From: Heterodontus francisci
Lineage: Eukaryota
Length of the DNA: 64,000 nt
NCBI RefSeq assembly: GCF_036365525.1
Contig: NC_090399.1
Span: 20,098,529 to 20,162,528, forward strand
Direction of reading: 5' to 3'
In this document: piece by piece, positions 6,385-46,841 of the stretch
How the letters are laid out: each line of letters begins with the position of its first letter
How positions within the stretch are numbered: the stretch's first letter is position 1
The notes under the pieces: generated by a model
Seen by the model: the letters and a program-made list of their open reading frames with translations, nothing else
Told to the model about the DNA's origin: nothing
Databases searched by the model: none
Made by a program: the position numbers and the translations under genes

Positions 6385-6412
6385 CATCTACCGCTCCTGG
6401 TTTTCGGAGAAA

Positions 6413-8554: not shown

Positions 8555-9453
8555 CAAACCTGCTGTCATTTCTGGTTCTTTTCCAAAGGAAATGCGGTCT
8601 TTCCAAAGGAATCACTCATTATATGATGGCCATGGCCGTGGGAGACCTCATGGTCCTTATCTTTAATGTTATTGTGAGCCAAATCATCAAGTATCATTTT
8701 CCAGATTCATTGCTGAACTACACTTCCACGTGTCGTTTTACTGTCTTCATGCAAGGGTTTAGCATTCAGCTCTCTATCTGGTTCACAATGTCGTTCACCT
8801 TTGACCGTTTTGTTGCAATTTGTTGCCAGAAATTGAAATCAAGATATTGCACCGAAAGGACAGCCACCATGGTTGTAACGGCCATGTGTGTGCTCAACAT
8901 TTTGATCAATATTCCCATGCCTTTCCGCTATGAGCCCGATTATATTCTCAACAATATACAGTGGGGCTGCCGCACCATCACAGGATATTTTACTTCACCC
9001 GCATGGAAGGTTCACCAATGGATTACCAATCTCTCAAGTACATTACTTCCAATTCCTTTGCTGCTGCTGTTGAACTCTCTCACCGTCAGGCACATCTTAT
9101 TAGCCAGTAGAGCTCGCAAAGCCCTGAAGAGCAACAACAATGGAAAAACCGGCAGTGATCCCGAGATGAAGAACAGAAGAACATCCATCATTCTACTCTT
9201 TGCTATCTCGGGCACTTTTATTGTGTTGTCGGCCCCTATTACCGTAATACACATCTGTGTCGGTGTCACACAGACACTCGATTTCCAAGGTTCAAACTCA
9301 CTTTATTTGGCAATTAGAATCACATTTCTGTTGATGTGCACCAGCTCCTGTACAAACACTTGTATTTATGCACTGACACAGAGGAGATTCAGAGCGGAGA
9401 TCAAAAATATGGTGAAATATCCGTATTATCTCATTGTTAAATTATTTAAATAA
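8555..9453 (+). CDS. GPR139-like class A GPCR copy 1, coding exon 2 (probable G-protein coupled receptor 139-like; 320 aa spliced)
   Basis: Acceptor tttttgcatttctcctag|CA. Rhodopsin-like 7TM pattern: MAVGDL (TM2), Cys at the top of TM3, FTFDRFVAIC, ECL2 Cys, TM5 Pro, NTCIY and helix 8 FRAEI. AATAAA at 9460-9465. Confidence 0.93.
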
Positions 9454-12400
9454 TTGTTGAATAAAGTAAGTGATATCAAACTTCAATTAATTGCCTGGCA
9501 TTTACTTTGCAACTTTGCACAATGTCTTTTAAAGTTCTAAGGGCAACACAACCCACAGTTTGGAAGAGTCCACTTGATTTATAAATTCCACTAAGAATTT
9601 GAATAAGTTGAGGAGGCAGAATCATCCCCTTCAAAATTTCCGGTTATGGTTGTTTATCCGGTTATTAATGTCCACGCACTTGGAATGACGAATTGGAGGA
9701 TGATGTGACATAGCAGAGCGCCTTGACAGGTTCAAATAATAAAGATCTTTCAACACACTGACATCCGAATTTGGAGCAGGAGTAGGCCTGTCATTCCTTC
9801 AAGCCTGCTCCGCCATTTGATAAGATCATGGCAGATCTGGTTATGGCCTCAAATTTCCTGTCTACCTGATGTAATTTTGACTCCCTTATCAATCAGGATT
9901 CTATCTAAAACAGCACCTCAAGAGTCAGATCACCATGAAATACAATGGGATATTGTGTTTGATGGCAGATGTTATGGAATATAAATATCGAGATTTATTG
10001 GTGAATCTCTCCCAGACTTTTGTGAGACCAAACCCGCAGTATTTTGTGCTGTTTTGGACTCAACACTGTTGGCCAATTTGGATGTAATAGTGAGGACACA
10101 GCGTAGTAAACTCACTAGCATGATGTCGGACATGAATAAATCCAAATATGAAAAATGAGTTCGTTCTCAATCAGAAGAGAAGAGATTTCAGGCTGAATTA
10201 ATAGAGATGGTTGCAGTAATGAAAGCCTGGAGCAGAATAGATAGATGCAACGATTGATGGGTCTATCAGCAGTGAACATAGATCTTGAGAGTAAATGAAA
10301 GAGATTTAGGACAGAGAACAGAAGAAACTTTGTGACACCTAGAATTGTGAAGCTGTGACTTGGATTTTTGGAGTTATTGATTGAAGCAGAGACTGTGACA
10401 ACTTTAACGGGTTTGATATGATGTTTCAAGATCAATGAATAAAGTAATATTGGAGCAGTGCGACCAGATATGATTAAAACTATTGCTTATGTAGATGACA
10501 AATACAGATGTGGGTTGATCTGCCCCAACGACCTGCTTTCGTGTTGCAATTTCTATGAAATTCATTTTTTCATGTGGTAATTGATTTGTTTTCTTGTGCT
10601 GGCAAGACTTCATGTTTGGCCAATTCCTTGCAGCCCTGAGGATGTGATGGCCAGCCTTCAATTTTACCTGCTGCTCTCCTTCTGATGGTGCAGCAGCGAT
10701 GATGCCAGGAAGGGAATCCCAGGATACAGATACAGCGACCATGAACAAATTGTGACATATGTCTAAGCTAGAATGGTATGTGACTTACAAATGATGATGT
10801 TCCAATGACATTTTGTTCCTGTGCTTCTCGGTGGGAGAGGTTGCAGATGAGGAAGTTGCTGTCGAATTAAACTTGATGGTTTGCTGCAGTGCATCCGATA
10901 AACTGTATTTTCAGGAACCATTGTGTGTCAGCTGCAGAGGGAAGGACACTGAGCTCAGGGACATGGGCACTGATGAAGGGAACTGCTCTGTCCCATATGA
11001 GATTGAGCTTCTGGAGTTGTATAGTTCCTGCACCCATCCTGTCGATTGGTCTATATTCCCTCACACACCTGACTTGTGGCCTTTCCTTGATGTTGAGGAT
11101 TTGGAACGGGATCGGGGTGAAGGGAGAGGTGCGAGCGGATGTGTGCCACTCGGAGACGCCGTGGTACTGATAGTTAGCAGGTAAAACAATATCAAATTGA
11201 TGCAGTATGTATTGCTCTTCTGAGATTTCAACTGAAGAAATGGGATGCAGCAGAGCAGAGGAAGTTTTTTCTGTCTCCATTTAAGCTGTGCTCCAGCTGA
11301 CCTCAGCGTGTCTCCACGCAAAACTATGAAAGTTCTTGGCAATGCTTTCAAGCTCAATCAGGCTGATCGTATAAAGCATTCTGTTCTCTCATTAATAGTG
11401 AATCTTTTACAAAGGCAATGAATAAACCGTGTCTGGTGTCTACCTCAACATGGTGCGGGGTTGGCACCCCAACGTTCTCCCGACGTCGGGTTCCCGACCC
11501 CCAGAAGGAAAATCCTTTTCACCAAAAGGAGGCACGGTTGACTTGGCAACAAGTCCACTGTCACACTGAGGCCCTGTCACTAACTGAAAAACGACAGGTG
11601 GGAAAACTTCCAGCGCTCTCGACAAGTCTTTTCTTTTCCCCTTGCAGAACCTGTGTTTCCAGTTTTTATTAAACTTTCTGTCGTTTGGAAGTCCCACAGA
11701 CGATGTTCTAATCTTCATTCTCAATATGGATGGGATAACCAGCGGGATTCCTGCAGAAATAATTTCCCTATCCCTCTCCACGTTATGGCAGGAGATGGGG
11801 AAACCCACCCACAACCACATCCTCTCCCACCCATTGGAAATTCCATCCCTCAAAAATGTTTCCTCTGGCAGAATATTTCGGAGCTGTGTCATATTGTTCT
11901 TGTATTTGACAGAGAGTTGGACCTTGTGATTGAGAAACTGCAGGTCTGTTTCAGGCCGTTGACCCAATATAAATGGCCTCCTTCATTTTGCAGCACATCT
12001 CATGACCTTGGGTTTCTACTTGCTTTTGGCTTGACCAACTGTTCTCGTTTCGCCCTCGTTCCTGCTCTCGAGCAGTGGCTTTTACTGAATTTTCTTTTCT
12101 TCACATAACACAGATATGACATGATCACCCATTTTGCAGCATTATCCAAAGTTAAAATTGCACCGCCACCACCGCACAAATCCCCTCATCCCTCGCTCAG
12201 TTCCAATCCTAGAAGAAACCATTCTGTCCTTTTTCAGCGTGGTAGCATTCTTGCCTCCTCGTCAGAACGTCACCAGAGACATAAACGCACAATCTAGGCT
12301 GCCGCTCCAGTGAGGGAGTGCTGCACTGTCGTAGGTGCTATCTTGTGGATGAGACATTAAACCAAGGCCCTGCCTGCCCTCTCAGGTGGACGGAAAAGAC

Positions 12401-12749
12401 GCTGTGTCACTATTTTAAGGACTTCACCCCTTCCTCGGCTCTTCGGCTGCTGAACCCCTCATCCAGGACTTTGTTACCTCTAGACTTGACTATTCCAATG
12501 TTCTTCCGACCAGTCTCCCACATTCTTCCCTCATAAATTTGAGGGCATCCGAAACCTTGCTCCCCACGTCTGAACTCACACCAAGTCCTGTTCACCAACA
12601 CCCCTGTGTTTGCTTACTTATTTTGGCTATCAGTTTAGTAATAACTTGATTTTAAAATTCCCATCCTTGTTTTCAAAGGCCACCATGGTCTCACCCCTCC
12701 CTATCTCTGTAATCTCCTACAGCCCCACAACCCTCTGGGATATCTACAC

Positions 12750-13492
12750 TGCCCGACCTGAACTCGATGGGACCTGACATGTGTCTGGTGCGGGTTGGGT
12801 CACTCTTCTGGGCCCGGTTTTCGGGCTCATGTCGGGTCTGAGTCAGACACACACAGTATTAATTGGACTTGAAAGGTTGTTTAAAAGGATTAAGATTGGA
12901 GCCATGAAGTCAGTGATTGTTTGGTCACAAGTTAAACAGAAACCCATGGAGTTGTGCCCATTCAGGTTGTGCCACGCTGTACCAGTATCCGCATTGCTTA
13001 AAATAAAGACCTCAATTGCCCGAAGGCTCAGAAAATATCATTATACATTAACTAGACACCTGCTTTACAGGTCGAAATACTTGCTGTAAGTTTATCCAGT
13101 GAGCAGCTGAGATGCCGAGGCCAGGAAAGTCCTGAGTGATTAATTATTATTACAGTACTGTATTGTATATGTGGTAGAATGGAGTCCTGACAGTGATCAT
13201 TTTATATTTTTTTATATAAATACTGTATATTTTATAATAATTAATCTCTCAGGACCTTCCTGGTCTCTGCATCTCAGCTGCTCACTGGATAAACTTGTAG
13301 CAAGTATTTCAACTGAAAAAGTGAAAAACAGATTCGGAGTTGGAAGGTAGGTAAAGTGAACATTCCGTTGGTCGGGTTGGGTCGGACTCGGGTCGGGTTG
13401 GGCATGGGAAAAAATGGAAGGACTCAGACCAGGTTGGGCTCGGGTACGATGTGGTTCTGTTGTTTTTTTTTTCAGACCCGAGCAGGCCTTTC
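12750..13492. mobile_element. hAT-like non-autonomous DNA transposon (MITE) with an internal 77-bp-arm inverted repeat; copies at ~33694-34425 and ~50140-50870
   Basis: Subterminal CCCGA/TCGGG motif clusters at both ends. Candidate 8-bp TSD ATCTACAC / ATCT(C/A)CGC. It interrupts an L2 fragment. Confidence 0.55.
13074..13310. repeat. Long inverted repeat (arms 13074-13150 and 13234-13310); copies at 34007-34243 and 50452-50688
   Basis: The arms are reverse complements with 6 mismatches in 77 bp in unit 1 (4 in unit 2), around an AT-rich 83-bp loop. Confidence 0.92.
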
Positions 13493-14280
13493 ATCTCCGC
13501 TTCTCTGATTCTGGCCTCGTGAGCTCCAACATTGGTGGCTGTGACTTCAGGTGCCTAGCCCCAAGCTCTGGAATTCCCTCACTCAACCTCTCCACTTCTC
13601 TCTCCTCCTTAAAGAAATTCATTAAAAACCTACCACTCTGACCAAGCCTTTGGTCATCAGCTATAATATCATCTTTTGTCACTTGGTCAAAGTTTGCTTA
13701 TAATGCTCTTGTGAAGTGCCTTGTGATGTTATATTACATTAAAGGTGCAATATAAATGCAAGTTGTTTTTGTTGTTGTTGAAGAAGACTGGGGGTGTTCT
13801 CCCCAACTTCACTAAAACAGATGATCTAGTCAATTATCTCATTGCTGTTTGTGGGAGTTTGCTGCTGTGTGTAAACTGGATGCTGCATTGTCTACATTTC
13901 AAGAGTGACTGCATTTCAAAAAGGAGTCGAATTGGCTGTGATGCACTTTTGGATGTCCTGGGGTGGTGAAAGGTGATTTATAAATGGAAATCTTTCAGGT
14001 CTTGCTTGACTGAAGACCAGCGTGGTCTGAAATGCTCAGGAAGATGACTGTGCATACAAACGAACAATTCAAAGGTCAGGTGCATCAGAAGGGAAAAACT
14101 CAGGTAGCAGAGACACTGAGAGATATATGAAGCAGGAAAGCAAATTTCAATCAAAACAGTTGTTACAAGGGAAAGTGTATTAGCACACTTCCAAATAGAA
14201 ATAATCAGAATAAGTATAGACAATCAAAACTGTTAGGAATCAATTCACAGAAGTCATCCAAATACTTGGTTCAATTACAG

Positions 14281-14545
14281 GCATCACACATGCACACTCA
14301 CACACACTCACACAGAGAGTAACACACACAGGTTGGAGTGTGTCACAAAGAGTAACACACGGGGTGGAGTGAGTCTCTCACACACACAGAGTAACACAAA
14401 GGCTGGAGTGTGTCAAACACACACAGAGTAACACAAAGGCTGGAGTGTGTCACACAACATGACACGCAGGTTGGAATTTTCAAACACACTTAGTAACATA
14501 CAGGCAGGGTCAGGCACACAAACAGAGTAACACATAGGCTGGGGT
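14281..14545 (+). repeat. CA-rich ~35-bp minisatellite, tract left of the Gypsy element; copies at ~35206-35469 and ~51651-51914
   Basis: Repeats of cacagagtaacacaaaggctggagtgtgtca. Confidence 0.85.
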
Positions 14546-17500
14546 CAGTCTTTAAACATTAATCTTTATTGCATAATAACTATATACACTCCACACTAGC
14601 CTGTGTGTCTCCTTCAAAAGCCTTGCTGTAACTGTTCTTGAGTCTCTCCCACATGATTTCTTAACTCATCCTGGTGGGCAGTAATCTTTACGTTCTCTCA
14701 AGATTAACCCTTTGATACCCTTATACTACATTTTCCCCACGTTTTTAGCCTAAGATATATTTAGACACATTCATTTTTTCATTTACACGCTATCCTATCT
14801 CCTCCCAAGTCTCTGACTTCATAGATTCAACCTATCAGGAGGCTTCACAACTCTTCCTAATCTTGGTGGTCGTCAGATGTGAAAGATTGATAATCTTTCT
14901 CTGATCCCTTGTTTCTTGACTTGGACGGTCTTCGTTGAGTTTTGTAGCATTTGGCACTTTTTGATTTTTCGGTTCATCATCTGAGTCATCTAACTGTGTA
15001 ACTAACGTCTTTGATGTAAAGGAATAAGATTCCTTCTATTTCTCCATTTAGGATCTTCTTGAGTCCATAGTAGAGAAGATCGCTGTTGATTCTCATCTTT
15101 CTGGAGAATTACCCTGTCTCTCTTTTGGTTTCGTACCCATACTTTTTGCCCTTCTGACAACTTTGGTAGGTTTCAGGTACGGAACCTTCTGTAATGATAA
15201 TGGGTCTGCTTGTTTCAATATATCTTTTCTATGTCCAGTATTTTCTGATAATCCTTGCCTTGCAATCCTGGAAGTAACTTCTTGCATAGAATTGGAAATT
15301 GCTTTTGAAGTTTTCATTAAGAGTTGTGATGGCGTTAATCTGCACAATAATGGAGTAGTTCTGTATGTCAGTCGTGCTAAATGGAAATCTCTTTTTTTTC
15401 AATCAACATAATTTTAATGGTTCTGACTGCTCGCTCAGCTTCTCCATTTGATTGTGGATACTTAGGAGAGCTTATTAGGTGAACAAATCCACATTATTCT
15501 GCAAAGTGCGTGAAGTAATCGTTTGCAAATTACAGTCCATTATCAGATAATATCTGATCAGGTATACCAGGTGTTGTGAAACTTCTTGTAAAACTCTGAT
15601 GACTGCTTCAGTTGTTGTTGTGTTGTCCATCTTAACTTCGATCCATCCTGAGAAGTAATCAACTATAATTAGCTAGGCTCTTCCTTCAAAGAAGAACAAA
15701 TCCACGGTCCAGTTGAGAATTGGGTCGAAATTAGAGTTTCTCTTTGATCTTGTCTTCCCCAGTTCTCTGTCAGTGTAGCACTCCTGTGAAACTCACTGCA
15801 TTTCTGTTTCTCTCTCTGCTAATCTTTGAGCAGCACGGCGGGCTGTGAAATATTGCATTGTGTGGGCTCTGTAGCGAAATCTGGACTCTCTGCAAAACTC
15901 AGGTCAGGGTAGGGGGCTCTTCCTCTGTCCTCACTCCTGGATTATTCTCGTTAATCTACTTCAACTTTCTCAATAATATGAAGATCAATAAAAGTTCTTC
16001 TACTTAAGACTGTGAACTCCTGATTTCTTAGGACGTACAGTGTTTCTAATATTTACTTTCCATTATATTGAAGCGTTGCTTGTAACTTCCCCTTTACTTC
16101 AAGTACAAGACCTCCTGGGCCATGCAACTGAGTTTCTATTGCTTGCTCCGGTGTCAAGTTTGAAATGTGTCTGCTGACCAAAATGCTCGTTTCGGATCAT
16201 TGATCTCACCCAGAAAATATTTCGATTGGTCTGCTGCAGGAGCTTCTGTAACTTCATTTATCTCTCTATTCTTAACTACTTTTCCTTTAGAGGTTGATGT
16301 GGTCACGATTTTATTTCAGCATAATCTTACTGAGATGCCCTATTTTTCTGTAATAAAGGCATTCTGCTCTATTGGCGGGACACTGTCCATGCCTGTGGGA
16401 CGTTTTTGCACCACAATGTTTAAGGACATCTTTTGCTCTGCCCCCTGGTGTTCCTGTTTTCCTGGTACCTCTTGTTCAGCCGTCTGGTGAAGGAACGGAA
16501 CTGTTACAGGAGGATTCCTGTACCGGGGTCTTTCCTCACCTCGTATGATTGGTCTGTTATTGCTGCAATAATTGATGTCGGCAACAAAAGCTTTCAAGAC
16601 CTGTTCAAATGTTGTTGATTTTCTCAATACGCTGCTATTATATCATCAGCTACAGCACCAATTAAATACAATTATGTATTCATTATGGATCCCTTGTGAC
16701 TTTTGAAACTCTCTGGAACTCCCAATTTTTGATCCATTTTAAAAAAATTTATAGACTTTTTAGCGTGTTCCCCTTTCAGAAAATCTTTTTCTCACACTAG
16801 CTTGCTTTGATGGAGTGTAGCAGGTCTTTGAGAGAGTTCCTGATGTTTTAAATAGGCTTTCTAGGGGTTTTCCCTTTGCTTAAGCAGCTCACTTATATCT
16901 TTATTTATTTAGAGATACAGCACTGAAACAGGCCCTTTGGCCCACCGAGTCTGTTCCAATCAACAACCACCCATTGATACTAACCCTACACTACCCCCAT
17001 ATTTTCTACCACATCCCCACCATTCTCCTACCACCTGCCTACACTAGGGGCAATTTACAATGGCCAATTTACCTATCAACCTGCAAGTCTTTTGGAGGTG
17101 GGAGGAAACCGGAACACCCGGCGGAAACCCACGCAGACACAGGGAGAACTTGCAAACTCTGCACAGGCAGTACTCAGAATCGAACCCGGGTCGCTGGAGC
17201 TGTGAGGCTGCAGTGCTAACCACTGCGCCACTGTGCCATTGACAGCTGACGCAGCTATCTATTGGAATTAACAGCGCTGTTCCATAGACAGTTTCAGGGT
17301 TTTCCCCTTTTCTTTTTAAGATCACGAGATACTTCAAGCTTGACTGCTTTAATGATTTTTTCAGGCTTGGCTGCATTAATGGAGATTCTGCTGTATTCGG
17401 GGTTTCCCTGCCCTATTTTCTCTTCAGTATCGGACTTTTCCCGTACATTTTTTTCAGTTCGTGTACTTTTCAGGGTTTTCTCCACTCTCCACCCTTGCAT

Positions 17501-18053
17501 TCAGCTGAGTGAGGGATGGGTTGACCCCATTGCTTTTTTCTTTCAATCTCACACTGAGCCTTTGGAAAAAATAATTTGGAAAAACTCTTCAAAGTCTTTT
17601 TTTAAAACCAGGATTTCTCAGTCATCAGCACAATGATTTACCCAATTGCCTGTTTGCAGCCATGCTTCCATTCCATGGAGCTTCTCTCAGCCTTCAAAGA
17701 TCTGTTGTTTCTTTTTATCTTTTCAGATACTTATTTTAAATTCTCTCTTCTGGCTGAAGGATGCTAGTTACTTCAAACTTTTTCTTCTGGGTGTAGAATC
17801 CCTCCACTGTTCACCATATTATATGTTTGGTTCTTCATGCTGCCACCGTCAGAGAGGTTCTTAGACTGTCGTGTTTAAACATTAATAATTATTGCATTGT
17901 AAGGATATACACTTCACACCAGCCTGTGTGTCTCCTTCAATAACCACGCTGTAACTGTTCCCAAGTCTCTCCCACATAATCCCTTACATCATCATGGTGG
18001 GCAGTAATCTTTATGTTCTCTCAAGATTAACCCTTTGATACATTTAGATGACA
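14546..18053 (-). mobile_element. Internally deleted, decayed Gypsy LTR retrotransposon (LTRs at ~14546-14730 and ~17867-18053)
   Basis: Two ~185-bp direct repeats ending ..ACA on the plus strand. Polypurine tract (ttttccccac on plus) next to the left LTR and a PBS-like (c)ggtggcagc near the right LTR. Integrase remnant VDYFSGWIE..GIPDQILSDNG..SSPKYPQSNGEAERAVRTIK at ~15330-15710 and a degenerate gag zinc knuckle. No RT domain seen. Confidence 0.85.
16900..17237 (-). mobile_element. tRNA-derived V-SINE (HE1-like) inserted in the Gypsy element
   Basis: Minus-strand A box TGGCGCAGTGG and B box GGTTCGATTC, V-domain-like gtctgcgtgggtttcc..ccggtttcctcccac, and an (AAAT)n tail. Confidence 0.85.
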
Positions 18054-18780
18054 AAGCACACAGGCTGAAGTGTGTCACATACACACAGAGTAACACACAG
18101 GCTGCAGTGAGTCACATTCACACAGATTAGCACACAGGCTGGAGGTATGACATACACGCATAGTAACACACAGGCTGCATTGTGTCACAGCAAAGAGTAA
18201 CAGACAGGCTGCAGTGTGTCACATACACACAGAGTAACACACTGGCTGCAGTGTGTCACATTCACACAGATTAGCACACAGGCTGGAGGTATCACATACA
18301 CACATAGTAACACACAGGCTGCATTGTGTCACAGCAAAGAGTAACACACAGGCTGGAGTGTGTCACATACACAAAGTAACACACAGGCTGCAGTGTGTCA
18401 CACAGAGTAACACGCAGGTTGGAATGAGTCACAAATGCAAAGTAACACACAGGCTGGAGTCAGTCTCACTCGCACACACAGAGTAACACACAGGCTGGAG
18501 TTTGTCACATACACAGAGTAACACACAGGCTGGAGTACGTCACATACACAGAGTAACACACAGGCTGGAGTATGTCACATACACGCAGAGTAACACAAGT
18601 TGGAATGAGTCACAAATGCAAAGTAACACACAGGCTGGAGTCAGTCTCACACACACACACACACACACACACAGAAACACACTGGCTGGAGTTTGTCACA
18701 TACACAGAGTAACACACTGGCTGGAGTGTGTCACACACACACACAGAGTAACACACATGCTATAGTGGGTCACACACACA
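18054..18780 (+). repeat. CA-rich ~35-bp minisatellite (caggctggag variant)
   Basis: Tandem cacagagtaacacacaggctggagtgtgtcacata with (CA)n expansions. Confidence 0.92.
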
Positions 18781-19342
18781 GGGAATGTATCCATCTTGCG
18801 GATTTTCTGACGGTGGAATTGGATTTGGGCGGCACTTCCGCTCCCTCGCTTTTTGCCTGTTGCCACCCGATTACAAGTGGAAATCAAAGTTTCAGCAGCG
18901 GGCATGGGAGATACATGCGATCATAATGTGCGGAATACTTTTCATGGTGGAGCCTGCTGTCATTCAGGGAAGCATTATGCATGGCATTGGTATAAATAAT
19001 CCTTCAGTGCAAACAGGGAGGCTCATCAACGAGGCCAGTCTTTTTCAGAGACTTCTAGGCTTTTCCCCTGAAATCTTACCCACCATCACCCATCTTTACA
19101 CCTGTCGCAAACAAAGGCTATGGACCCTGGCAACATTACGGCAATAGCACTGAGGACCTGTGCTCCAGAACTTGCCGCGCCCCCAGACAAGCAGATTTGA
19201 GATGGTGCGGGAGGGGCGGGGCGGCGGGTGCGGGCGGGGGGCGGAATAGTAACTGCAGTGAGACTGGGACACCAGTAGATGGAGATGCTGAGCCATTGCT
19301 GATGGGAAGGTTTGGTGCTGCTGAGAGTTTGAAAGTTTCCAA

Positions 19343-19856
19343 ACACAGAGTAACACGCTGGCTGGAGTGTGTCACAGGCACAGAGTAACACACTGGCTGG
19401 AGTGTGTCACATACACAGAGTAACACGCTGGCTGGAGTGTGTCATATCCACAGAGTAACACACTGGCTGGAGTGTGTCACATACACAGAGTAACACGCTG
19501 GCTGCAGTGTGTCATATCCACAGAGTAACACACTGGCTGGAGTATGTCACATACACAGAGTAACACGCTGGCTGGTGTGTGTCACAGGCACAGAGTAACA
19601 CACTGGTTGGAGTGTGTCACACGCACACACAGAATAACACACTGGCTGGAGGGTGTCACACACACACAGAATAACACACTGGCTGGAATGTATCACACAC
19701 ACACGCACACTACACACACACACACACACAGAATAAAACACTGGCTGGAGTATGTCACACACACAGAGTAATACACTGGCTGGAGTGTGTCACACACAAA
19801 CACACACACAGAATAACACACTGGCTGGAGTGTGTACACACACAGAGTAACACACA
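19343..19856 (+). repeat. CA-rich 35-bp minisatellite (ctggctggag variant)
   Basis: Tandem cacagagtaacacactggctggagtgtgtcacata. Confidence 0.92.
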
Positions 19857-19865
19857 GAATTAGAA

Positions 19866-22496
19866 TTAGAACATTACAGCGCAGTACAGGCCCTTTGGCC
19901 CTCGATGTTGCGCCGACCTGTGAAACCATCTGACCGACACTATTCCATTTTCATCCATATGTCTATCCAATGACCACTTAAATGCCCTTAAAGTTGGCGA
20001 GTCTACTACTGTTGCAGGCAGGGCGTTCCACGCCCCTACTACTCTCTGAGTAAAGAAACTACCTCTGACATCTGTCCTATATCTATCACCCCTCAACTTA
20101 AAGCTATGTCCCCTCGTGTTTGCCATCACCATCCGAAGAAAAAGACTCTCACTATCCACCCTATATAACCCTCTGATTATCTTATATGTCTCTATTAAGT
20201 CACCTCTCCTCCTCCTTCTCTCCAATGAAAACAACCTCAAGTCCCTCAGCCTTTCCTTGTAAGACCTTCCCTCCATACCAGGCAACATCCTAGTAAATCT
20301 CCTCTGCACCCTTTCCATAGCTTCCACATCCTTCCTATAATGCGGTGACCAGAACTGCACGCAATACTCCAGGTGCGGCCTCACCAGAGTTTTGTACAGC
20401 TGCAGCATGACATCGTGGCTCCGAAACTCGATCCCCCTACTAATAAAAGCTAACACACCATATGCCTTCTTAACAGCCCTATTAACCTGGGTAGCAACCT
20501 TCAGGGATTTATGCACCTGGACACCAAGATCTCTCTGTTCATCTACACTACCAAGAATCTTCCCATTAGCCCAGTACTCTGCATTCCTGTTACTCCTTCC
20601 AAAGTGAATCACCACGCACTTTTCCGCATTAAACTCCATTTGCCATCTCTCAGCCCAGCTCTGCAGCCTATCTATGTCCCTCTGTACCCTACAACATCCT
20701 TCGGCACTATCCACAACTCCACCGACCTTAGTGTCATCCGCAAATTTACTAACCCACCCTTCTACACCCTCTTCCAGGTCATTTATAAAAATGACAAACA
20801 GCAGTGGCCCCAAAACAGATCCTTGCGGTACACCACTAGTAACTAAACTCCAGGATGAACATTTGCCATCAACCACCACCCTCTGTCTTCTTTCAGCTAG
20901 CCAATTTCTGATCCAAAGCTCTAAATCACCTTCAACCCCATACTTCTGTATTTTCTGCAATAGCCTACCGTGGGGAACCTTATCAAACGCCTTACTGAAA
21001 TCCATATACACCACATCCACTGCTTTACCCTCATCCACCTGCTTGGTCACCTTCTCGAAAAACTCAATAAGGTTTGTGAGGCACGACCTACCCATCACAA
21101 AACCGTGCTGACTATCGCTAATGAACTTATTCTTTTCAAGATGATTAAACATCCTGTCTCTTATAACCTTTTCCAACATTTTACCCACAACCGAAGTAAG
21201 GCTCACAGGTCTATAATTACCAGGGCTGTCTCTGCTCCCCTTCTTGAACAAGGGGACAACATTTGCTATCCTCCAGTCTTCCGGCACTATTCCTGTCGAC
21301 AATGACGACATAAAGATCAAGGACAAAGGCTCTGCAATCTCCTCCCTAGCTTCCCAGAGAATCCTAGGATAAATCCCATCTGGCCCAGGGGACCTATCTA
21401 TTTTCACACTTTCCAAAATTGATAACACCTCCTCCTTGTGAACCTCAATCCCATCTAGCCTAGTAGCCTGAATCTCAGTATTCTCCTCGACAACATTTTC
21501 TTTCTCTACTGTAAATACTGACGCAAAATATTCATTTAACACTTCCCCTAGCTCCTCTGATTCCACACACAACTTCCCACTACTATCCTTGATTGGCCCG
21601 AATCTAACTCTAGTCATTCTTTTATTCCTGATATACCTATAGAAAGCCTTAGGGTTTTCCCTGATCCTATCCGCCAATGACTTCTCGTGTCCTCTCCTTG
21701 CTCTTCTTAGCTCTCCCTTTAGATCCTTCCTGGCTAGCTTGTAACTCTCAAGCGCCCTAACTGAGCCTTCACGTCTCATCCTAACATAAGCCTTCTTCTT
21801 CCTCTTGACAAGCTCTTCAACTTCTTTAGTAAACCACGGCTCCCTCGCTCGACAACTTCCTCCCTGCCTCACAGGTATATACTTATCAAGGACACGCAGT
21901 AGCTGCTCTTTGAATAAGCTCCACATTTCGATTGTTCCCATCCCCTGCAGTTTCCTTCCCCATCCTACGCATCCTAAATCTTGCCTAATCGCATCATAAT
22001 TTCCTTTCCCCCAGCTATAATTTTTGCCCTGCGGAATATACCTATCCCTGCCCATCGCTAAGGTAAACCTAACCGAATTGTGATCACTATCACCAAAGTG
22101 CTCACCTACATCTAAATCTAACACCTGGCCGGGTTCATTACCCAGTACCAAATCCAATGTGGCATCGCCCCTGGTTGGCCTGTCTACATACTGTGTCAGA
22201 AAACCCTCCTGCACACACTGGACAAAAACTGACCCATCTAAAGTACTCGAACTATAGTATTTCCAGTCGATATTTGGAAAGTTAAAGTCCCCCATAACAA
22301 CTACCCTGTTACTCTCGCCCCTGTCGAGAATCATCTTCGCTATCCTTTCCTCTACATCTCTGGAAGTATTTGGAGGTCTATAAAAGACTCCCAACAGGGT
22401 GACCTCACCTCTCCTGTTTCTAACCTCGGCCCATACTACCTCAGACGAGTCCTCAAACGTCCTTTCTGTCGCTGTAATACTCTCCTTGATTAACAA
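19866..22496 (-). CDS. CR1 LINE ORF2 (APE endonuclease plus reverse transcriptase); N-terminus frameshifted at the G tract and native stop lost
   Basis: 876-aa ORF with the same APE and RT motifs as 3417-5987. A TAG>TCG change extends the ORF into the 3' UTR. Confidence 0.92.
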   Translation of the reverse strand: MLIKESITATERTFEDSSEVVWAEVRNRRGEVTLLGVFYRPPNTSRDVEERIAKMILDRGESNRVVVMGDFNFPNIDWKYYSSSTLDGSVFVQCVQEGFLTQYVDRPTRGDATLDLVLGNEPGQVLDLDVGEHFGDSDHNSVRFTLAMGRDRYIPQGKNYSWGKGNYDAIRQDLGCVGWGRKLQGMGTIEMWSLFKEQLLRVLDKYIPVRQGGSCRAREPWFTKEVEELVKRKKKAYVRMRREGSVRALESYKLARKDLKGELRRARRGHEKSLADRIRENPKAFYRYIRNKRMTRVRFGPIKDSSGKLCVESEELGEVLNEYFASVFTVEKENVVEENTEIQATRLDGIEVHKEEVLSILESVKIDRSPGPDGIYPRILWEAREEIAEPLSLIFMSSLSTGIVPEDWRIANVVPLFKKGSRDSPGNYRPVSLTSVVGKMLEKVIRDRMFNHLEKNKFISDSQHGFVMGRSCLTNLIEFFEKVTKQVDEGKAVDVVYMDFSKAFDKVPHGRLLQKIQKYGVEGDLELWIRNWLAERRQRVVVDGKCSSWSLVTSGVPQGSVLGPLLFVIFINDLEEGVEGWVSKFADDTKVGGVVDSAEGCCRVQRDIDRLQSWAERWQMEFNAEKCVVIHFGRSNRNAEYWANGKILGSVDEQRDLGVQVHKSLKVATQVNRAVKKAYGVLAFISRGIEFRSHDVMLQLYKTLVRPHLEYCVQFWSPHYRKDVEAMERVQRRFTRMLPGMEGRSYKERLRDLRLFSLERRRRRGDLIETYKIIRGLYRVDSESLFLRMVMANTRGHSFKLRGDRYRTDVRGSFFTQRVVGAWNALPATVVDSPTLRAFKWSLDRHMDENGIVSVRWFHRSAQHRGPKGLYCAVMF

Positions 22497-22824
22497 TGCA
22501 ACACCATCCCCCCCCCTCCCCCTCTTTTACCATCTTCTCTGTTGTTACTGAAACATCTAAATCCCGGAACCTGCAACATCCATTCCTGCCCCTGCTCTAC
22601 CCATGTCTCCGAAATGGCCACTACATCGAGATCCCAGGTACCAACCCATGCTGCAAGCTCACCCACCTTATTCCGGATGCTCCTGGCGTTGAAGTAGACA
22701 CACTTTAAACCAGGTTCTTGCTTGCCAGTGCCCTCTTGCGTCCTTGTAACCTTATCCCTGACCTCACTACTCTCAACATCCTGTACACTGGAACTACAAT
22801 TTAGGTTCCCATCCCCCTGCTGAA

Positions 22825-23746
22825 TTAGTTTAAACCCCCCCGAAGAGCACTAGCAAATCTCCTCCCCAGGATATTGGTACCCCTCTGGTTCAGGTGAAGA
22901 CCATCCTGTTTGTAGAGGTCCCACCTACCCCAGAAAGAGCCCCAGTTATCCAGGAAATCAAAACCCTCCCTCCTGCACCATCCCTGCAGCCACGTGTTCA
23001 ACTCCTCTCTCTCCCTATTCCTCGCTTCGCTATCACGTGGCACGGGCAACAACCCAGAGATAACAACTCTGTTTGTTCTTGCTCTAAGCTTCCACCCTAG
23101 CACCCTGAATTTCTGTCTTAAATCCCCATCTCTCTTCCTACCTATGTCGTTGGTGCCTATGTGGACCACGACTTGGGGCTGGTCCCCCTCCCCCTTAAGG
23201 ATCCCAAAAACACGATCCGAGACATCACGAACCCTGGCACCTGGGAGGCAACATACCAACCGTGAGTCTCTCTCGTTCCCACAGAACCTCCTATCTGTTC
23301 CCCGAACTATGGAGTCCCCAATGACTAATGCTCTGCTCCTCTTCCCCTTTCCCTTCTGAGCAACAGGGACAGACTCTGTGCCAGATACCTGTACCCCATT
23401 GCTTACCCCTGGTAAGTCGTCCCCCGAAACAGTATCCAAAACGGTATACCTGTTGTTGAGGGAAACAGCCACAGGGGATCCCTGCACTGCCTGCTGGTTC
23501 CCTCTCCTTCCCCTGACGGTAACCCATCTACCTACTTCTTTTACCTGAGGTGTGACTACCTCCCCATAACTCCTCTCAATAACCCCCTCCGCCTCCCGAA
23601 TGATCCGAAGTTGCTCCAGCTCCAGTTCCCTAACGCGGTTCTCGAGGAGCTGGAGTTGGGTGCACTTCCCGCAGATGCAGTCAGCAGGGACACTCTTGGC
23701 GACCCTTACCTCCCACATTCTGCAGGAGGAACATACAACTGCCTTA
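22825..23746 (-). CDS. CR1 LINE ORF1 (zinc finger, coiled coil, SGNH/GDSL esterase domain)
   Basis: CSSC..CGKC, LLENRVRELEL, GDSIVRG, PGA, HIGTND and DGLHLN motifs. Confidence 0.88.
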
Positions 23747-24659
23747 ACAGACTGGTGTACGTCAAGAATATCAATGTGATACCAAGAAACAACTGAAGAC
23801 ACTGGATGCTGCAAAGGCAATGGACCTTGACAACGTTCCGGCAATAGTACTGAAGACCAGTACCTGATATGAAATGTGACCCGTGGTAAGATGGAATTTC
23901 TTCTGGAAATCGGTTTTGCAGGATGAATTTCCTGGAATATTTCCAGAATGTGTTGTGACAAGGTCCCAGGCTCATAAGGTTAAACAAGATGAGATGGATT
24001 CAGATGTTTTCGAGGACAATTCTGATGTTTGGTTGGCTGAAATATTTTTCAGGGATTTGGATGAGGACATTGGTGTTAAAGGCTCCAAGGTTAACAATGG
24101 GGAATTGTTTAGCAGATCTCCCGTGATTTTGGGATACAACAGGCAGATCCTGATTTTAGGAGCTTGTCTCAGGCGACCTGTTTTGAGCCACAGACTGAAA
24201 AGTTTTATTAGTGTTATTACGTCAAGAAAGAAGAGGAAGTGGAGACCTCTCCGCTGATGAGGATTGGACTGTAATCCATCAAATGGTTGTCCCTCCTTGC
24301 TATCATAGTGTAATTTAGAGAATTGCGAATGAAATCCCATTCACAGGTCATTTGTGTTTTCCAAAAACTCAGGTTTGGGTAATGACATATTATTACTAGC
24401 AAAGCTGCATCAGGATGTGGTTCACTATTGTAAGACATGCCACACATGTCAAATGGTTGGGATCCACAGCCTATATCTTTTCCTTTGCCACCTATCTCAA
24501 TAAAAGCAGATTTCCTTTCATTATCAAAAGTCTTTTCTTTCCAATTTCTCTGAAAGTTTCCAAATTGAGGCCTGTGACAACTGCTTTGTGAATCAATTCA
24601 TAATCATGTGCTACTACTGCGGCTTCCTTTATTTTACAAACTTCATTTTTTAAAATTTG

Positions 24660-25024: not shown

Positions 25025-27164
25025 ATGTTGTTTCATTTGGAAACTTATTCCTGAACGAATAATATGTTTCAAATCTTCCATCAGAATTACTTCCCTCAGG
25101 CTCTCAAAGTCTTGTGCAATCTTTATTGACCTATACCACCTATCAAATTCAATCGTGTCTTTCAAAAAGAAATAGGATAAATACTTGAAGGGAAAAGAAA
25201 TGCGAGTAGACGGGGAAAGGACCGGATGTGGGACTGGATAAATTGCTCTTGCAGAGAGTAGGCACGGGCTTGATGGGCCGAATCACCTCCTTCACGAGGA
25301 GTGAGAGCGCCCATTAAGGCCCGATCACTCACTAATCGAGGAAGAGGTCTTGCAAATAAAGATGAGTGTTGAGGCTGGAGGACACATCCTGCAGGTTTCT
25401 TGTCTAATTAACAGTGTGCCTGTTCTGAACGAAATCTCACACTGACACACAATGCATCGCAAAATTCAGCTGCTTTCAGCTGACGCTCATCAGTCTTTGC
25501 TTGACCTCAGTCCTAAATACTAATTCTTGACCTTCTGTTCTATTTCAGGGCAATGGAATGTGCCCAGAACCTGAGGTGTGGGAAATGGGTTGCACTTGTG
25601 ATCATGCGGAAGCACCCACGCTTACTTCCGCAAGCATCAGCTCAGAGACTTGCATTGCCAGTACTTTAGTTGGTATGCAAGATGGTTATGGACTGTTCGA
25701 CTCAAGGAGCACCAGAGAATGGAAAATGGGTTGCGGGATAGGATGGTTAGTAAGGGGCTTTCTGCAGGAAGAGCTAACATCTTAAAGAGCACAACTGAAG
25801 ATTTCGAGGACACAGTCAACATTCAAAAACTGATTCCTATTTACCAGGGATTTTTCAGTGCATTGGGCAGCCTGCCTGCGATTCGACACACAATGACAGA
25901 GAGCATGGAAAAATCCAGCTCCAGCTGTTGGAGAGGCGGTGAGGGGGTGGGGGTGTTGGGGGTGTGTGTGTTTGTGAGGGGTGGGGTGGGCGTGTGTATG
26001 GATCATTCAGAACGGTTTTAACACCTTAATGTCGAGAATGGAGTGAGACAATTGAAGTCAACGGAACTGAGTATTGGAAGGGGCGCATAAAGGGCAGTCG
26101 ATTCCATGCCACCCACATTGCTTTCATGCCGAATGCAAACTATTATCCTGTAGATTTTTAGACTGCTTTAGGGAAATAGCAGATCCACCTTGTATTCCTG
26201 CTGATTTATATTATTCCTTTTTAGTAATGCATCAAAGACAGCCTGCGCCACAAATAAACTGCTTCAGACAGTACAGACATCAACAACGACCTGCGAGGCA
26301 GAAACCAGGCAGAACCACTTTTGCTGCCTTTTCTTCCAGATGCCGATATTCAGTGCTATTGAAGTCAAGTAGATTGAATATCAGCAGGGGCGTGTAACGA
26401 GCCACCAATGCAATGTCACCTGCTTTGTCAATATCCACTCCCGTGTACTTGTATGGCATGTTTAATGCAGAAAACCATCACAAAGCACTTCAGAGAGGCC
26501 GAATCAAATAATAATAGATATTGAACCAAGAGTAATTCTGAGAATAGGATTGGTCAAAAAGGTGGGTGTTAGGGACTGTCTTAAAGCAGTTGAGGGAGAG
26601 TAAGGTGGAGCGGTTTAGAGCAGCAATTCCACAGAGCGGGAGTCTGTGGCTCCAGGTTTGAGAGCAAGAGGGGATCGAATGGGGAGTCTTTGCTGTAGAG
26701 GTCGTAATTGAAGAGGGAGGAAAGTTGGGAAGTTAGGCATGGAGCAGGTCACAGGGATAGAAAGAGAGAATAGGCGGAAGTTCAGGGAGGGTGGCTAATT
26801 CGAACCTGGACAGGAATAATCGGCGTAGCTTTGACGTTCGACCATTGTGTAAAACCTGTGGTATGGAGTGCACCACTCGGGAAGAAGCTCTCCTGATGTT
26901 TTTTTCCAACAAAGTCGAAATTACCCCACTTAGCTCTGCTGGTGTCAAAGGCATGAACCAGGGTTTGAACGTCTGATGCATTGACGAAAAGCTGGAGTTC
27001 GACAACATTAAGACGGTGAAACTTGTCGGTCTATATCCACTTCTCGGTTCAACCTAAACCCAATGTCCCATTAATGCTGAGCTGCTGGGATCAAAATGCA
27101 GCAACGGAGCAAGAGTCTCAGAGGCGAGGATTTTTTCAGTCTGAGATTGCACACTGTTTTTAAT

Positions 27165-27326: not shown

Positions 27327-27354
27327 TATCAACCGCTCCTGGTTTTCGGAGAAA

Positions 27355-27418
27355 ATGGGACGACAGGCACTTCCGATAGAAATGTTGTATCCGATTCTCG
27401 CAGTTATTGGCATTCCTG
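27355..27418 (+). CDS. GPR139-like GPCR copy 2, coding exon 1
   Basis: ATG...CCT G|GTAAGT, identical to copy 1 exon 1. Confidence 0.88.
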
Positions 27419-29496: not shown

Positions 29497-30395
29497 CAAA
29501 CCTGCTGTCATTTCTGGTTCTTTTCCAGAGGAAATGCGGTCTTTCCAAAGGAATCACTCGTTATATGATGGCCATGGCCGTGGGAGACCTCATGGTCCTC
29601 ATCTTTAATGTTATTGTGAACGAAATCATCAAGTATCATTTTCCAGATTCAGTGCTGAACTCCACTTCCGCGTGTCGTTTTACTGTCTTCATGCAAGGGT
29701 TTAGCATTCAGCTCTCTATCTGGTTCACAATGTCGTTCACCTTTGACCGTTTTGTCGCAATTTGTTGCCAGAAATTGAAATCAAGATATTGCACCGAAAG
29801 GACAGCCACCAAGGTTGTAACGGCCATGTGTGTGCTCAATATTTTGATCAATATTCCCATGCCTTTCCGCTATGAACCCGATCATACTCTCAACAATATA
29901 CAGTGGGGCTGCCGCACCATCACAGGATATTTTACTTCACCCGCATGGAAGGTTCACCAATGGATTACCAATCTCTCAAGTGCATTACTTCCAATTCCTT
30001 TTCTGCTGCTGTTGAACTCTCTCACCGTCAGGCACATTTTATTAGCCAGTAGAGCTCGCAAAGCCCTGAAGAGCAACATCAATGGAAAAACCGGCAGTGA
30101 TCCCGAGATGAAGTACAGAAGAACATCCATCATTCTACTCTTTGCTATCTCGGGCACTTTTATTGTGTTGTCGGCCCCTATTACCGTAATACACATCTGT
30201 GTCGGTGTCACACAGACAGTCTATTTCCATGGTTCAAACTCACTTTATTTGGCAATTAGAATCACATTTCTGTTGATGTGCACCAGCTCCTGTACAAACA
30301 CTTGTATTTATGCACTGACACAGAGGAGATTCAGAGCGGAGATCAAAAATATGGTGAAATATCCGTATTATCTCATTGTTAAATTATTTAAATAA
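29497..30395 (+). CDS. GPR139-like class A GPCR copy 2, coding exon 2 (320 aa spliced)
   Basis: Acceptor tttctcccag|CA. Intact 899-nt exon with the same 7TM motifs. Confidence 0.93.
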
Positions 30396-38400: not shown

Positions 38401-39077
38401 ATGGAGATTCTGCTGTATTCGGGGTTTCCCTGCCCTTTTTTTCTCTTCAGTATGGGACTTTTCCCGTACATTTTTTTCAGTTCGTGCACTTTTCAGGGTT
38501 CTCTCCACTCTCCACCCTTGCATTCAGCCTGAGTGAGGGATGGGTTGACCCCATTGCTTTTTTCTTTCAATCTCACACTGAGACTTTGGAAAAAATAATT
38601 TTTTAAAACTCTTCAAAGGCTTTTTTTTAAACCAGGATTTCTTAGGCGTCAGCACAATAATTCAGCCGATTGCTTGTTTGCAGCCATGCTTCCATTCTAT
38701 GGAGCTTCTCTCAGCCTTCAAAGATCTGTTGTTTCTTTTTATCTTTTCAGATACTTATTTTAAATTCTCTCTTCTGGCTGAAGGATGCTAGTTACTTCAA
38801 ACTTTTTCTTCTGAGTGTAGAATCCCTCCACTGTTCACCATATTATATGTTTGGTTCTTCATGCTGCCACCGTCAGAGAGGTTCTTAGACTGTAGTGTTT
38901 AAACATTAATCTTTATTGCATTGTAAGGATATACACTTCACACCAGCCTGTGTGTCTCCTTCAATAACCACGCTGTAACTGTTCCCAAACCTCTCCCACA
39001 TAATCCCTTACATCATCATGATGGGCCGCAATCTTTACGTTCTCTCAAGATTAACCCTTTGATACATTTAGATGACA
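35470..39077 (-). mobile_element. Decayed Gypsy LTR element, unit 2 copy (about 87 bp longer near 37620-37707)
   Basis: Colinear with 14546-18053, with LTR ends at 35654 and 39077. Confidence 0.85.
37921..38259 (-). mobile_element. HE1-like V-SINE, unit 2 copy
   Basis: Matches 16900-17237. Confidence 0.85.
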
Positions 39078-39437
39078 AAGCACACAGGCTGAAGTGTGTC
39101 ACATACACACAGAGTAACACACAGGCTGGAATGAGTCACAAATGCAAAGTAACACCACAGGCTGGAGTCAGTCTCTCTCTCACTCACAGAGTAACACACA
39201 GGCTGGGGTTTGTCACATACACAGAGTAACACACAGGCTGGAGTTTGTCACATACACAGAGTAACACACAGGCTGGAGTATGTCACATACACAGAGTAAC
39301 ACACAGGCTGGGGTATGTCACATACACAGAGGAACACACAGGCTGGAATGAGTCACAAATGCAAAGTAACACACAGGCTGGAGTCAGTCTCACTCACACA
39401 CACACACAGAGAAACACACAGGCTGGAGTCAGTCTCC

Positions 39438-39477
<40 letters not shown>

Positions 39478-39507
39478 CACACATGCTAGAGTGGGTCACA
39501 CACACAG
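39078..39507 (+). repeat. CA-rich minisatellite, shorter unit 2 tract (second short tract at ~40073-40240)
   Basis: Same ~35-bp unit with fewer copies. Confidence 0.9.
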
Positions 39508-42500
39508 GGAATGTATCCATCTTGTGGATTTTCTGACGGTAGAATTGGATTTGGGCGGCACTTCCGCTCCCTCGTTTTTTGCCTGTTGCCACCCGATTAC
39601 AAGTGGAAATCAAAGTTTCAGCAGCGGGCATGGGAGATACATGCGATCATGTGGTGTGGAATACTTTTCATGGTGGAGCCTGCTGTCATTCAGGGAAGCA
39701 TTATGCATGGCATTGTTATAAATAATCCTTCAGTGCAATCAGGGAGGTTCATCAACGAGGCCAGTCTTTTTCAGAGACTTCTGGGCTTTTCCCCTTAAAT
39801 CTTACCCACCCTCACCCATCTTTACACCTGTCGCAAACAAAGGCTATGGACCCTGGCAACATTACGGCAAGAGCACTGAGGACCTGTGCTCCAGAACTTG
39901 CCGCGCCCCCAGACAAGCAGATTTGTGATGGTGCGGGGGTGCGTGGAGGGGTGGGGTGGGTGTGGGTGGGGGGGGAATAGTAACCGCAGTGAGACAGGGA
40001 CACCTGCAGATGGAGATGCTGAGCCATTGCTGATGGGAAGGTTTGGTGTTACTGAGAGTTTGACAGTTTCCAAACACAGAGTAACACGCTGGCTGGAGTG
40101 TGTCACAGGCACAGAGTAACACACTGGTTGGAGTGTGTCACACGCACACACAGAATAACACACTGGCTGAAGTGTGTCACACACACAGAATAACACACTG
40201 GCTGGAGTGTGTACACACACAGAGTAACACACAGGCTGGTGTACGTCAAGAATATCAATGTGCTACCAAGAAACAACTGAAGACACTGGATGCTGCAAAG
40301 GCAATGGGCCGTGACAATGTTCCGGCAATAGTACTGAAGACCAGTACCTGATATGAAATGTGACCCGTGGTAAGATGGAATTTCTTCTGGAAATCGGTTT
40401 TGCAGCATGCATTTCCTGGAATATTTCCAGAATGTGTTGTGACAAGGTCCCAGGCTCATAAGGTTAAACAAGATGAGATGGATTCAGATGTTTTCGAGGA
40501 CAATTCCGATGTTTGGTTGGCTGAAATATTTTTCAGGGATTTGGATGAGGACATTGGTGTTAAAGGCTCCAAGGTTAACAATGGGGAATTGTTTAGCAGA
40601 TCTCCCGTGATTTTGGGACACAACAGGCAGATCCTGATTTTAGGAGCTTGTCTCAGGCGACCTGTTTTGAGCCACAGACTGAAAAGTTTTATTAGTGTTA
40701 TTACGTCAAGAAAGATGAGGAAGTGGAGACCTCTCCGCTGATGAGGATTGGGCTGTAATCCATCAAATGGTTGTCCCTCCTTGCTATCATAGTGCAATTT
40801 AGAGAATTGCCAATGAAATCCCAGTCACAGGTCATTTGTGTTTTTCAAAAACTCAGGTTAGGGTAATGACATATTGTTACTAGCAAAGCTGCATCAGGAT
40901 GTGGTTCACTATTGTAAGACATGCCACACATGTCAAATGGTTGGGATCCACAGCCTATATCTTTACCTTTGCCACCTATCTCAATAAAAGCAGATTTCCT
41001 TTCATTATCAAAAGTCTTTTCTTTCCAATTTCTCTGAAAGTTTCCAAATTGAGGCCTGTGACAACTGCTTTGTGAATCAATTCATAATCATGTGCTACTA
41101 CTGCGGCTTCCTTTATTTTACAAACTTCATTTTTTAAAATTTGTTTGTGGGATGTGGGCGTTGCTGGCTAGGCCAACATTTATTGCCCATCCCGAAATGC
41201 CTTTGAACTGAGTGGCTTGCGAGGCCATTTCAAAATGCTTTTTTGTGTCTGGAGTCAGATGGAGGTCAGACCACGTAAGGATGGCAGATTTCCTTCCGAA
41301 AAGGACATTAGTTAAACAGATGGGTTTTTATAACAATCGACAATGGTTTCATGGTCACAATTAGACTAGCTTTTTAATTCCAGAATTGTGAAGAAAATTC
41401 AAACTTCACCTTCTCCTATGGTGGGATTCGATCCCATCTCACCAGATTTTTAGTTTGTGCTCTGGAATACTAGTTTAATAACATTAACACTCTGCCGCGA
41501 ACTCCCCCATGTTGTTTCATTTGGAAACTTATTCCTGAACGAATACTGTGTTTCAAATCTTCCATCAGAATTACTTCCCTCAGGCTCTCAAAGTCTTGTG
41601 CAATCTTTATTGACCTACACCACCGATCAAATTCAATCGTGTCTTTCAAAAGGAAATAGGATAAATACTTGAAGGGAAATGAAATGGGAGTAGAGGGGGA
41701 AAGGACCGGATGTGGGACTAGATAAATTGCTCTTGCAGAGAGTAGGCACGGGCATGATGGGCCGAATCACCTCCTTCACGAGGAGTGAGAGCGCCCATTA
41801 AGGCCCTATCACTCACTAATCGAGGAAGAGGTCTTGCAAATAAAGATGAGTGTTGAGGCTGGAGGACACATCCTGCAGGTTTCTTCTCTAATTTACAGTG
41901 TGCCCGTTCTGAACGAAATCTCACACTGACACACAATGCATAGGAAAATTCAGCTGCTTTCAGCTGACGCTCATCAGTCTTTGCTTGACCTCAACCCTAA
42001 ATACTAATTCTTGACCTTCTGTTCTATTTCAGGGCAATGGAATGTGCCCAGAACCTGAGGTGACGGGAAATGGGTTGCACTTGTGATCATGCGGAAGCAC
42101 CCACGGTTACTTCCGCAAGCATCAGCTCAGAGACTTGCATTGCCAGTACTTTAGTTGGTATGCAAGATGGTTATGGACTGTTCGACTCAAGGAGCAGCAG
42201 AGAATGGAAAATGGGTAGCGGGATAGGATGGTTAGTAAGGGGCTTTCTGCAGGAAGAGCTAACATCTTAAAGAGCACAGCTGAAGATTTCGAGGACACAG
42301 TCAACATTCAAAAACTGCTTCCTATTTACCAGGGCTTTTCCAGTGCTTTGGGCAGCCTGCCTGCGATTCGACACACAATGACAGAGAGCATGGAAAAATC
42401 CAGCTCCAGATGTTGGAGAGGGGGTGAGGGGGTGGGGGGGGGGGTGGGGGGTGTGTGTGTTTGTGAGGGGTGGGGTGGGCGTGTGTATGGATCATTCAGA

Positions 42501-43814: not shown

Positions 43815-43842
43815 GATCAACCGCTCCTAGTTTTTGGAGAAA

Positions 43843-43906
43843 ATGGGACGACAGGCACTTCCAATAGAAATGTTGTATCCGATTCTCGCAGTTATTGGCA
43901 TTCCTG
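43843..43906 (+). CDS. GPR139-like GPCR copy 3, coding exon 1
   Basis: ATG...CCT G|GTAAGT, with one synonymous change (CCG>CCA). Confidence 0.88.
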
Positions 43907-45942: not shown

Positions 45943-46841
45943 CGAACCTGCTGTCAGTTTTGGTTCTTTTCCAAAGGAAATGCGGTCTTTCCAAAGGAAT
46001 CACTCGTTATATGATGGCCATGGCAGTGGGAGACCTCATGGTCCTTATCTTTAATGTTATTGTGAACGAAATCATCAAGTATCATTTTCCAGATTCATTG
46101 CTGAACTACACTTCCGCGTGTCGTTTTAGTGCCCTCATGCAAGGGTTTAGCATTCAGCTCTCTATCTGGTTCACACTGTCGTTCACCTTTGACCGTTTTG
46201 TCGCAATTTGTTGCCAGAAATTGAAATCAAGATATTGCACCGAAAGGACAGCCACCACGGTTATAACGACCATGTGTGTGCTCAACATTTTGAACAATAT
46301 CCCCATGCCTTTCCGCTATGAACCCGATTATACTCTCAACAATATACAGTGGGGCTGCCGCACCGTCACAGGATATTTTACTTCACCCGCATGGAAGATT
46401 CACCAATGGATTACCATCCTCTCAAATGCATTACTTCCAATTCCTTTGCTGCTGCTGTTGAACTCTCTCACCGTCAGGCACATTTTATTAGCCAGTAGAG
46501 CTCGCAAAGCCCTGAAGAGCAACAACAATGGAAAAACCGGCAGTGATCCCGAGATGAAGAACAGAAGAACATCCATCATTCTACTCTTTGCTATCTCGGG
46601 CACTTTTATTGTGTTGTCGGCGCCTATTACCGTAATACACATCTGTGTCGGTGTCACACAGACAGTCGATTTCCAAGGTTCAAACTCACTTTATTTGGCA
46701 ATTAGAATCACATTTCTGTTGATGTGCACCAGCTCCTGTACAAACACTTGTATTTATGCACTGACACAGAGGAGATTCAGAGCAGAGATCAAAAATATGG
46801 TGAAATATCCGTATTATCTCATTGTTAAATTATTTAAATAA
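45943..46841 (+). CDS. GPR139-like class A GPCR copy 3, coding exon 2 (320 aa spliced)
   Basis: Acceptor attctcccag|CG. Intact 899-nt exon with the same 7TM motifs. Confidence 0.93.

Follow-up and report, generated by a model that had tools for sequence, protein, structure and literature searches.

Three receptor genes of Heterodontus francisci belong to a 16-copy tandem array within an elasmobranch class A family of over 4,500 loci

The 64,000-nt stretch of the Heterodontus francisci genome analysed here (the window) carries three copies of a receptor gene. They are members of a young 16-copy tandem array in an elasmobranch class A family that counts over 4,500 loci. The family is likely to serve as a chemical-sensing repertoire with a predicted pocket rim that is free to change and a signalling side held by purifying selection; we give this reading a probability of about 0.55. 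Judged from its sequences, the family is very large and mostly intact, and behaves like a chemoreceptor repertoire. Copy number, mosaic structure, family size and a gradient of constraint along the receptor were observed directly and are described below.

The window genes and the 16-copy array

The window is a tandem segmental duplication with 95-98% identity between its units (Table 1). Each gene consists of a 64-nt exon 1, a GT-AG intron of 2.0-2.1 kb and an 899-nt exon 2, and the product is 320 amino acids long. The proteins score 70.7 bits against Pfam 7tm_1 (cut-off 30.5) and have the class A (rhodopsin-like) marks N1.50, D2.50 and a helical bundle, with DRF as the DRY-like motif and NTCIY as the NPxxY-like motif. 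A predicted model of the receptor (pLDDT 81) matches class A folds, the nearest being those of peptide receptors. A protein search returned an identical Heterodontus francisci protein named 'probable G-protein coupled receptor 139'. Contigs of three sequencing runs that fall on copy 1 cover mainly the repeat in its intron and are uninformative on expression either way. The window also holds LINE copies, presumably of CR1 type, in which long frames encode endonuclease/reverse transcriptase and another encodes a GDSL esterase; these were duplicated along with the array units. Between the gene units lie short-period tandem repeat tracts of variable length, which are possible sites of unequal exchange.

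Table 1. Features of the window (positions counted from its first nucleotide)
Feature	Position	Strand	Remarks
LINE copy	3330-5987	+	
Tandem duplication unit with copy 1	6065..19855	+	95-97% identity to units starting at 27007 and 43495
Copy 1 exon 1	6413..6476	+	ATG to phase-1 GT donor, 64 nt
High-copy interspersed repeat in copy 1 intron	6900-7700		Heavily covered by contigs of the three runs
Copy 1 exon 2	8555..9453	+	899 nt, from the end of TM1 through the stop; the product is a class A GPCR of 320 aa
Tandem repeat tract	18050-19860		
LINE copy	19866-23979	-	
Copy 2 exon 1	27355..27418	+	
Copy 2 exon 2	29497..30395	+	
Tandem repeat tract	39075-40250		
Copy 3 exon 1	43843..43906	+	
Copy 3 exon 2	45943..46841	+	
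Tandem repeat tract	55430-58490		
LINE copy	58498-62617	-	

Across the genome, 16 copies were found at 96% DNA identity or more, all of them on contig C29 (19.93-20.28 Mb); after these, identity drops to 67% for the best remaining match. Exon 2 is open in every one, two copies running a few residues beyond the usual stop, and no broken copy of this subfamily was present among the 16 near-identical DNA matches. Two copies outside the window may be weakened. L034 has Glu in place of Asp at 2.50, and L042, for which exon 2 alone was used in the analyses, carries Gly at an arginine that is otherwise invariant in the family, and no exon 1 turned up for it within 3 kb. Four copies (C29, 20.107, 20.167, 20.203 and 20.241 Mb) differ in exon 2 by 2-8 nt and alternate with other types, pointing to a very recent higher-order duplication. 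Among the 13 tandem copies the intron divergence is 0.034 versus a pN of 0.022-0.023, and there are 10 distinct extracellular haplotypes. The copies are mosaics, with a site incompatibility of 0.29 between nearby sites versus 0.50 between distant ones (PHI-type test, p=0.0005), and at least 12 recombination events are required in exon 2 and at least 31 in the intron. The exchange between copies would be gene conversion or unequal crossing-over.

Size and relatives of the family

Back-translated TM3 and TM6 motifs gave 4,564 and 4,573 matches in the genome (controls, 0 and 9), and a pattern with both motifs at the right spacing gave 4,662 (control, 0); these are minimum counts, because both long motifs are absent from 25 of 130 known members. 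Exon 2, the main exon, on which the count rests, was intact at 75 of 90 and 36 of 55 motif-picked loci, ie 111 of 145 pooled with 34 not intact, the samples being clustered and not random. Rare-codon subsamples placed 66/164, 55/72, 34/51 and 23/33 of the matches on contigs C1-C50, which were taken as the chromosomes; 24-60% of the sampled matches fell on contigs with numbers above 50, some of which may be haplotype duplicates. By simple arithmetic, the open copies would number roughly 3,500 in the whole assembly, with 1,400-2,700 of them on C1-C50. One block of family genes on C4 is repeated about 2.53 Mb apart (204.25-204.55 and 206.79-207.10 Mb), and reflects either genuine segmental duplication or duplication in the assembly. 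In the databases, where most members are called GPR139, 118 of the best 120 of 1,581 matches were named, and all were from sharks, skates or rays. More than 4,500 mostly open loci under one automatic name contradict, for Heterodontus francisci and whatever their function, the paucity of GPCRs in cartilaginous fish described in PMC8455134. A literature search, with most subscription journals outside its scope, returned no description of the family, and it is apparently undescribed; the supplement of 10.1101/2025.06.08.657570 may list it. The text portions of that source name tandem clusters, none of them of this receptor family, and the portions of 10.1101/2022.10.17.512540 contain no GPCR term.

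Orthology to GPR139 was considered and is ruled out by an identity of 21-27%, a separate clade and the presence of the true orthologue on C24, where the shark's own GPR139 was found once by motif and is 88% identical to the human protein. The likeness to GPR139 and GPR142 lies in the best structure match, the TM1 splice acceptor and the database name, whereas GPR139 is conserved, with one copy found, and the family has thousands of copies at the above full-length identity. When the family profile was compared with solved structures GPR139 ranked best (E=1.4e-23; next, 9e-16), reversing the order given by a single-sequence search, in which other peptide receptors stood above GPR139. A phase-1 splice acceptor two bases before N1.50 was present in shark GPR139 and at 75 of 75 family loci checked. 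By profile, tree and common TM1 intron, the family is nearest to a GPR139-like group, taken here as GPR139, GPR142, a third gene and amphioxus genes.

The third gene, which is distinct from GPR139 and GPR142, surfaced in a search with cluster representatives. It was found once in this genome (L290, C25:37863886-37864857), and an example elsewhere is coelacanth XP_005988539, whose GPR139-like label is an automatic name. Its sequences from sharks, ray-finned fish, coelacanth, amphibians and reptiles are 46-66% identical, and the named entries in the best 120 matches include neither mammals nor birds. The family profile scores it at 147-193 bits versus 57-71 bits for GPR139/142. It is placed as sister to the family with 90/89 support, which is below the starred threshold of the tool, in a midpoint-rooted tree with long branches; a reedfish gene and the amphioxus genes come next. 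The third gene has the splice acceptor in common with the family, but it is single-copy and conserved, and next to it the branch of the family is long. Two database models of the third gene carry TMEM183A isoform names, hinting at a neighbouring gene.

Distribution of the differences, and constraint

A sequence-only reading of the window had counted 16 amino-acid-changing and 6 silent codon differences between copies 1 and 2, and 20 versus about 9 between copies 1 and 3. Our recount was identical for the first pair and gave 20 and 10 for the second. The 28 variable residues among the three copies, the lack of stops and indels, and the invariance of the last 54 amino acids (residues 267-320) were all recovered, and the Ballesteros-Weinstein labels matched independent motif anchors. 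Exon 1, described as invariant, is so in its protein but has one silent change in its DNA, and with 16 copies both exon 1 and the C-terminus vary. The ECL1 sequon, noted as kept, is retained in 16 of 16 copies. The extracellular half had been said to hold about 19 of the variable residues, and by our own boundaries, which make 143 of 319 positions extracellular, it holds 19 of 28 (p=0.009).

The conclusions drawn from these counts held less well. That the differences are mostly non-synonymous is what the site counts predict: three copies give a pN/pS of 0.74-0.91, and all 16 give 0.57-0.70. Nor is a location in the ligand pocket confirmed as stated, since just 6 of 28 are on our list of 30 pocket positions (p=0.035), a list drawn from the literature and mapped by motif, not from model contacts. 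The proposed check for enrichment, made with all 16 copies, gave 28 of 61 variable residues in the extracellular half (p=0.48) and 7 of 61 in the pocket (p=0.34), and the extracellular enrichment seen in three copies was dropped once the 13 further copies were added. Apparent selection on three copies is an ordinary finding, and partly an effect of small samples and recombination. Variants common to at least two copies are, however, enriched in the pocket (7 of 37 with 16 copies, p=0.043; 7 of 29 with the 13 tandem copies, p=0.011). The variation of the array sits on the rim formed by TM2, TM3, TM4 and TM5 and on the loops; the deep pocket and the TM6/TM7 wall are constant, with 3.32, 3.33, 3.36, 6.48, 6.51, 6.52, 6.55, 7.35, 7.39 and 7.43 invariant in all 16 copies.

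For the family as a whole, 231 intact exon-2 sequences were gathered from the genome, one stop-bearing locus and ten same-place duplicates being removed before clustering; they encode 218 different proteins, whose median identity is 53%. In the 34 other young clusters (at least 90% identity), dN/dS, taken against the cluster-wide pS by two counting methods, was 0.95-1.06 in the pocket, where the 95% intervals together run from 0.77 to 1.27; it was 0.72-0.79 in the extracellular loops and 0.37-0.40 in the intracellular halves of the TM helices. This is a real gradient of constraint with a near-neutral pocket. In the focal array a tree-free count gave a pocket dN/dS of just 0.51-0.56. The sites with shared variants in the array vary again when the same subfamily is examined in five further lineages of sharks and rays (1.59 vs 0.91, p=1e-5), most strongly in the pocket (2.62 vs 1.16, p=0.0005). 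Sites of the intracellular half are recurrently variable too (1.22 vs 0.73, p=0.002), so that plain tolerance explains part of the pattern. A polar core is kept among the 59 proteins of the subfamily (Q3.32, Q3.37 and N2.57, 56/59 each; N4.57, 51/59; R7.36, 49/59), and the subfamily itself is retained across sharks and rays. Across subfamilies the most variable columns include 3.29, 3.32, 3.33 and 6.51.

An alternative is that positive, diversifying selection actively drives the pocket differences among the copies. Diversifying selection on the pocket is plausible from these data, but as the main cause of the differences we consider it doubtful, and within the 16-copy array it is unproven. Site models (M0, M1a, M2a, M7, M8a and M8, in our own implementation on a FastTree topology) gave M1a/M2a statistics of 24.7 with 16 copies and 27.1 with 13, and M8a/M8 statistics of 24.2 and 27.0, so that the codeml-type test which the earlier reading proposed is indeed significant. 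As evidence of selection it failed. Neutral coalescent simulations that left out positive selection, with the recombination rate matched to the observed array values, gave a statistic of at least 27.1 in 31 of 46 runs and in 25 of 44. Because neutral recombination yields equal statistics, the site-model test carries no information here, its significance is ruled out as evidence for positive selection, and the result is a caution on applying such tests to tandem arrays. Extracellular pN in the array (0.030) is also below the local pS (0.035-0.043). More favourable to selection is the frequency of the variants: the mean minor count is 3.76 for extracellular amino-acid variants, 2.70 for the intron and 2.39 for intracellular variants, and the extracellular excess gave p=0.049 and 0.015 in recombination-aware simulation, with p=0.025 for six pocket sites (65 genealogies, post hoc). 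Across the clusters, the largest per-site excess was at 5.43, 6.51 and position 162, the second residue beyond the ECL2 cysteine, with 22 changes at 5.43 against 9.8 expected (p=0.0005); at p<0.01 there were 4 non-synonymous sites versus 6 synonymous control sites, ie the controls were equally extreme. A pocket mean of about 1 with some pocket sites invariant implies that other sites lie above 1. Of the earlier proposal that ligand specificity is diversifying, the part that survives is that the pocket rim is the fast-changing part of the receptor, as shared variants and other lineages indicate. The interval for the family-wide pocket dN/dS of about 1 includes 1. The caveat of relaxed selection in the earlier reading stands.

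In its full form, relaxed selection would have redundant copies accumulate by drift in a large repeat-rich genome, with most copies weakly expressed and an outer half that tolerates change. We consider this unlikely given the low dN/dS of the intracellular TM halves in young clusters, the open exon 2 of every array copy, and the retention of the subfamily and its polar core across sharks and rays, although it would accommodate the array pN/pS, the non-intact loci in the samples, the D2.50E copy and the copy altered at an otherwise invariant arginine. According to 10.1101/2025.06.08.657570, larger elasmobranch genomes also hold more tandem duplicates.

A putative sensory role

In the preferred reading, that of a chemical-sensing repertoire, duplication would supply the copies and recombination between them would shuffle two-state blocks (2.61-2.62, ECL1, 3.28-3.30, 4.56, ECL2, 5.43-5.47 and ECL3) into new combinations on the pocket rim. 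The polar core N2.57, Q3.32, Q3.37, N4.57 and R7.36 would, with the predicted pocket geometry, anchor a ligand class common to the subfamily, with the rim adjusting affinity for related ligands within that class. From one subfamily to another, even the core is replaced. Like the known vertebrate chemoreceptors (OR, TAAR, V1R, V2R, T1R and T2R), the family has birth-and-death tandem arrays, compact genes, a variable pocket and a conserved intracellular side, but it is of a different lineage and its sensory role is putative. It is tempting, though tentative, to see in it an undescribed seventh vertebrate chemoreceptor family of sharks and rays, derived from a GPR139-like peptide/amino-acid receptor lineage and recombining rim combinations on a fixed subfamily core.

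If so, this shark, with thousands of intact genes, would match or surpass even the richest olfactory repertoires of mammals, and the impression that sharks smell with a few dozen receptors would be explained. PMC10869828 gives 20-62 olfactory-type genes for cartilaginous fish, fewer chemoreceptors than in any other group of vertebrates, and a mammalian maximum of 2,514. The statement of a small repertoire is now directly testable with existing olfactory-organ RNA data. A non-neural repertoire, comparable to the expansions of formyl-peptide and Mrgpr receptors, is the least probable of the alternatives; its members might, eg, sense peptides of microbes or of the host in the skin or the immune system. 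It would leave an identical sequence pattern. It fits the peptide receptors as nearest folds, as well as the relation of the GPR139 group to peptide receptors in PMC12208981.

Among class A receptors outside the vertebrates, the nearest parallels are the FMRFamide-receptor-like or Srw-type expansions of invertebrates, and the protein-atlas neighbours of the family are labelled Srw and FMRFamide-receptor. Lineage-specific class A expansions are described for molluscs in PMC11589774 and PMC11886862. The present family is an independent expansion, in a vertebrate, and its clade does not include the unnamed look-alikes that are not GPR139. For putative invertebrate chemoreceptors, PMC11886862 also reports large expansions of class A receptors whose pockets have high entropy. 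In the present family, a large tandem birth-and-death repertoire with a variable pocket as in chemosensory families, the entropy over 37 cluster representatives was 2.28 bits in the pocket and 0.89 in the intracellular TM segments.
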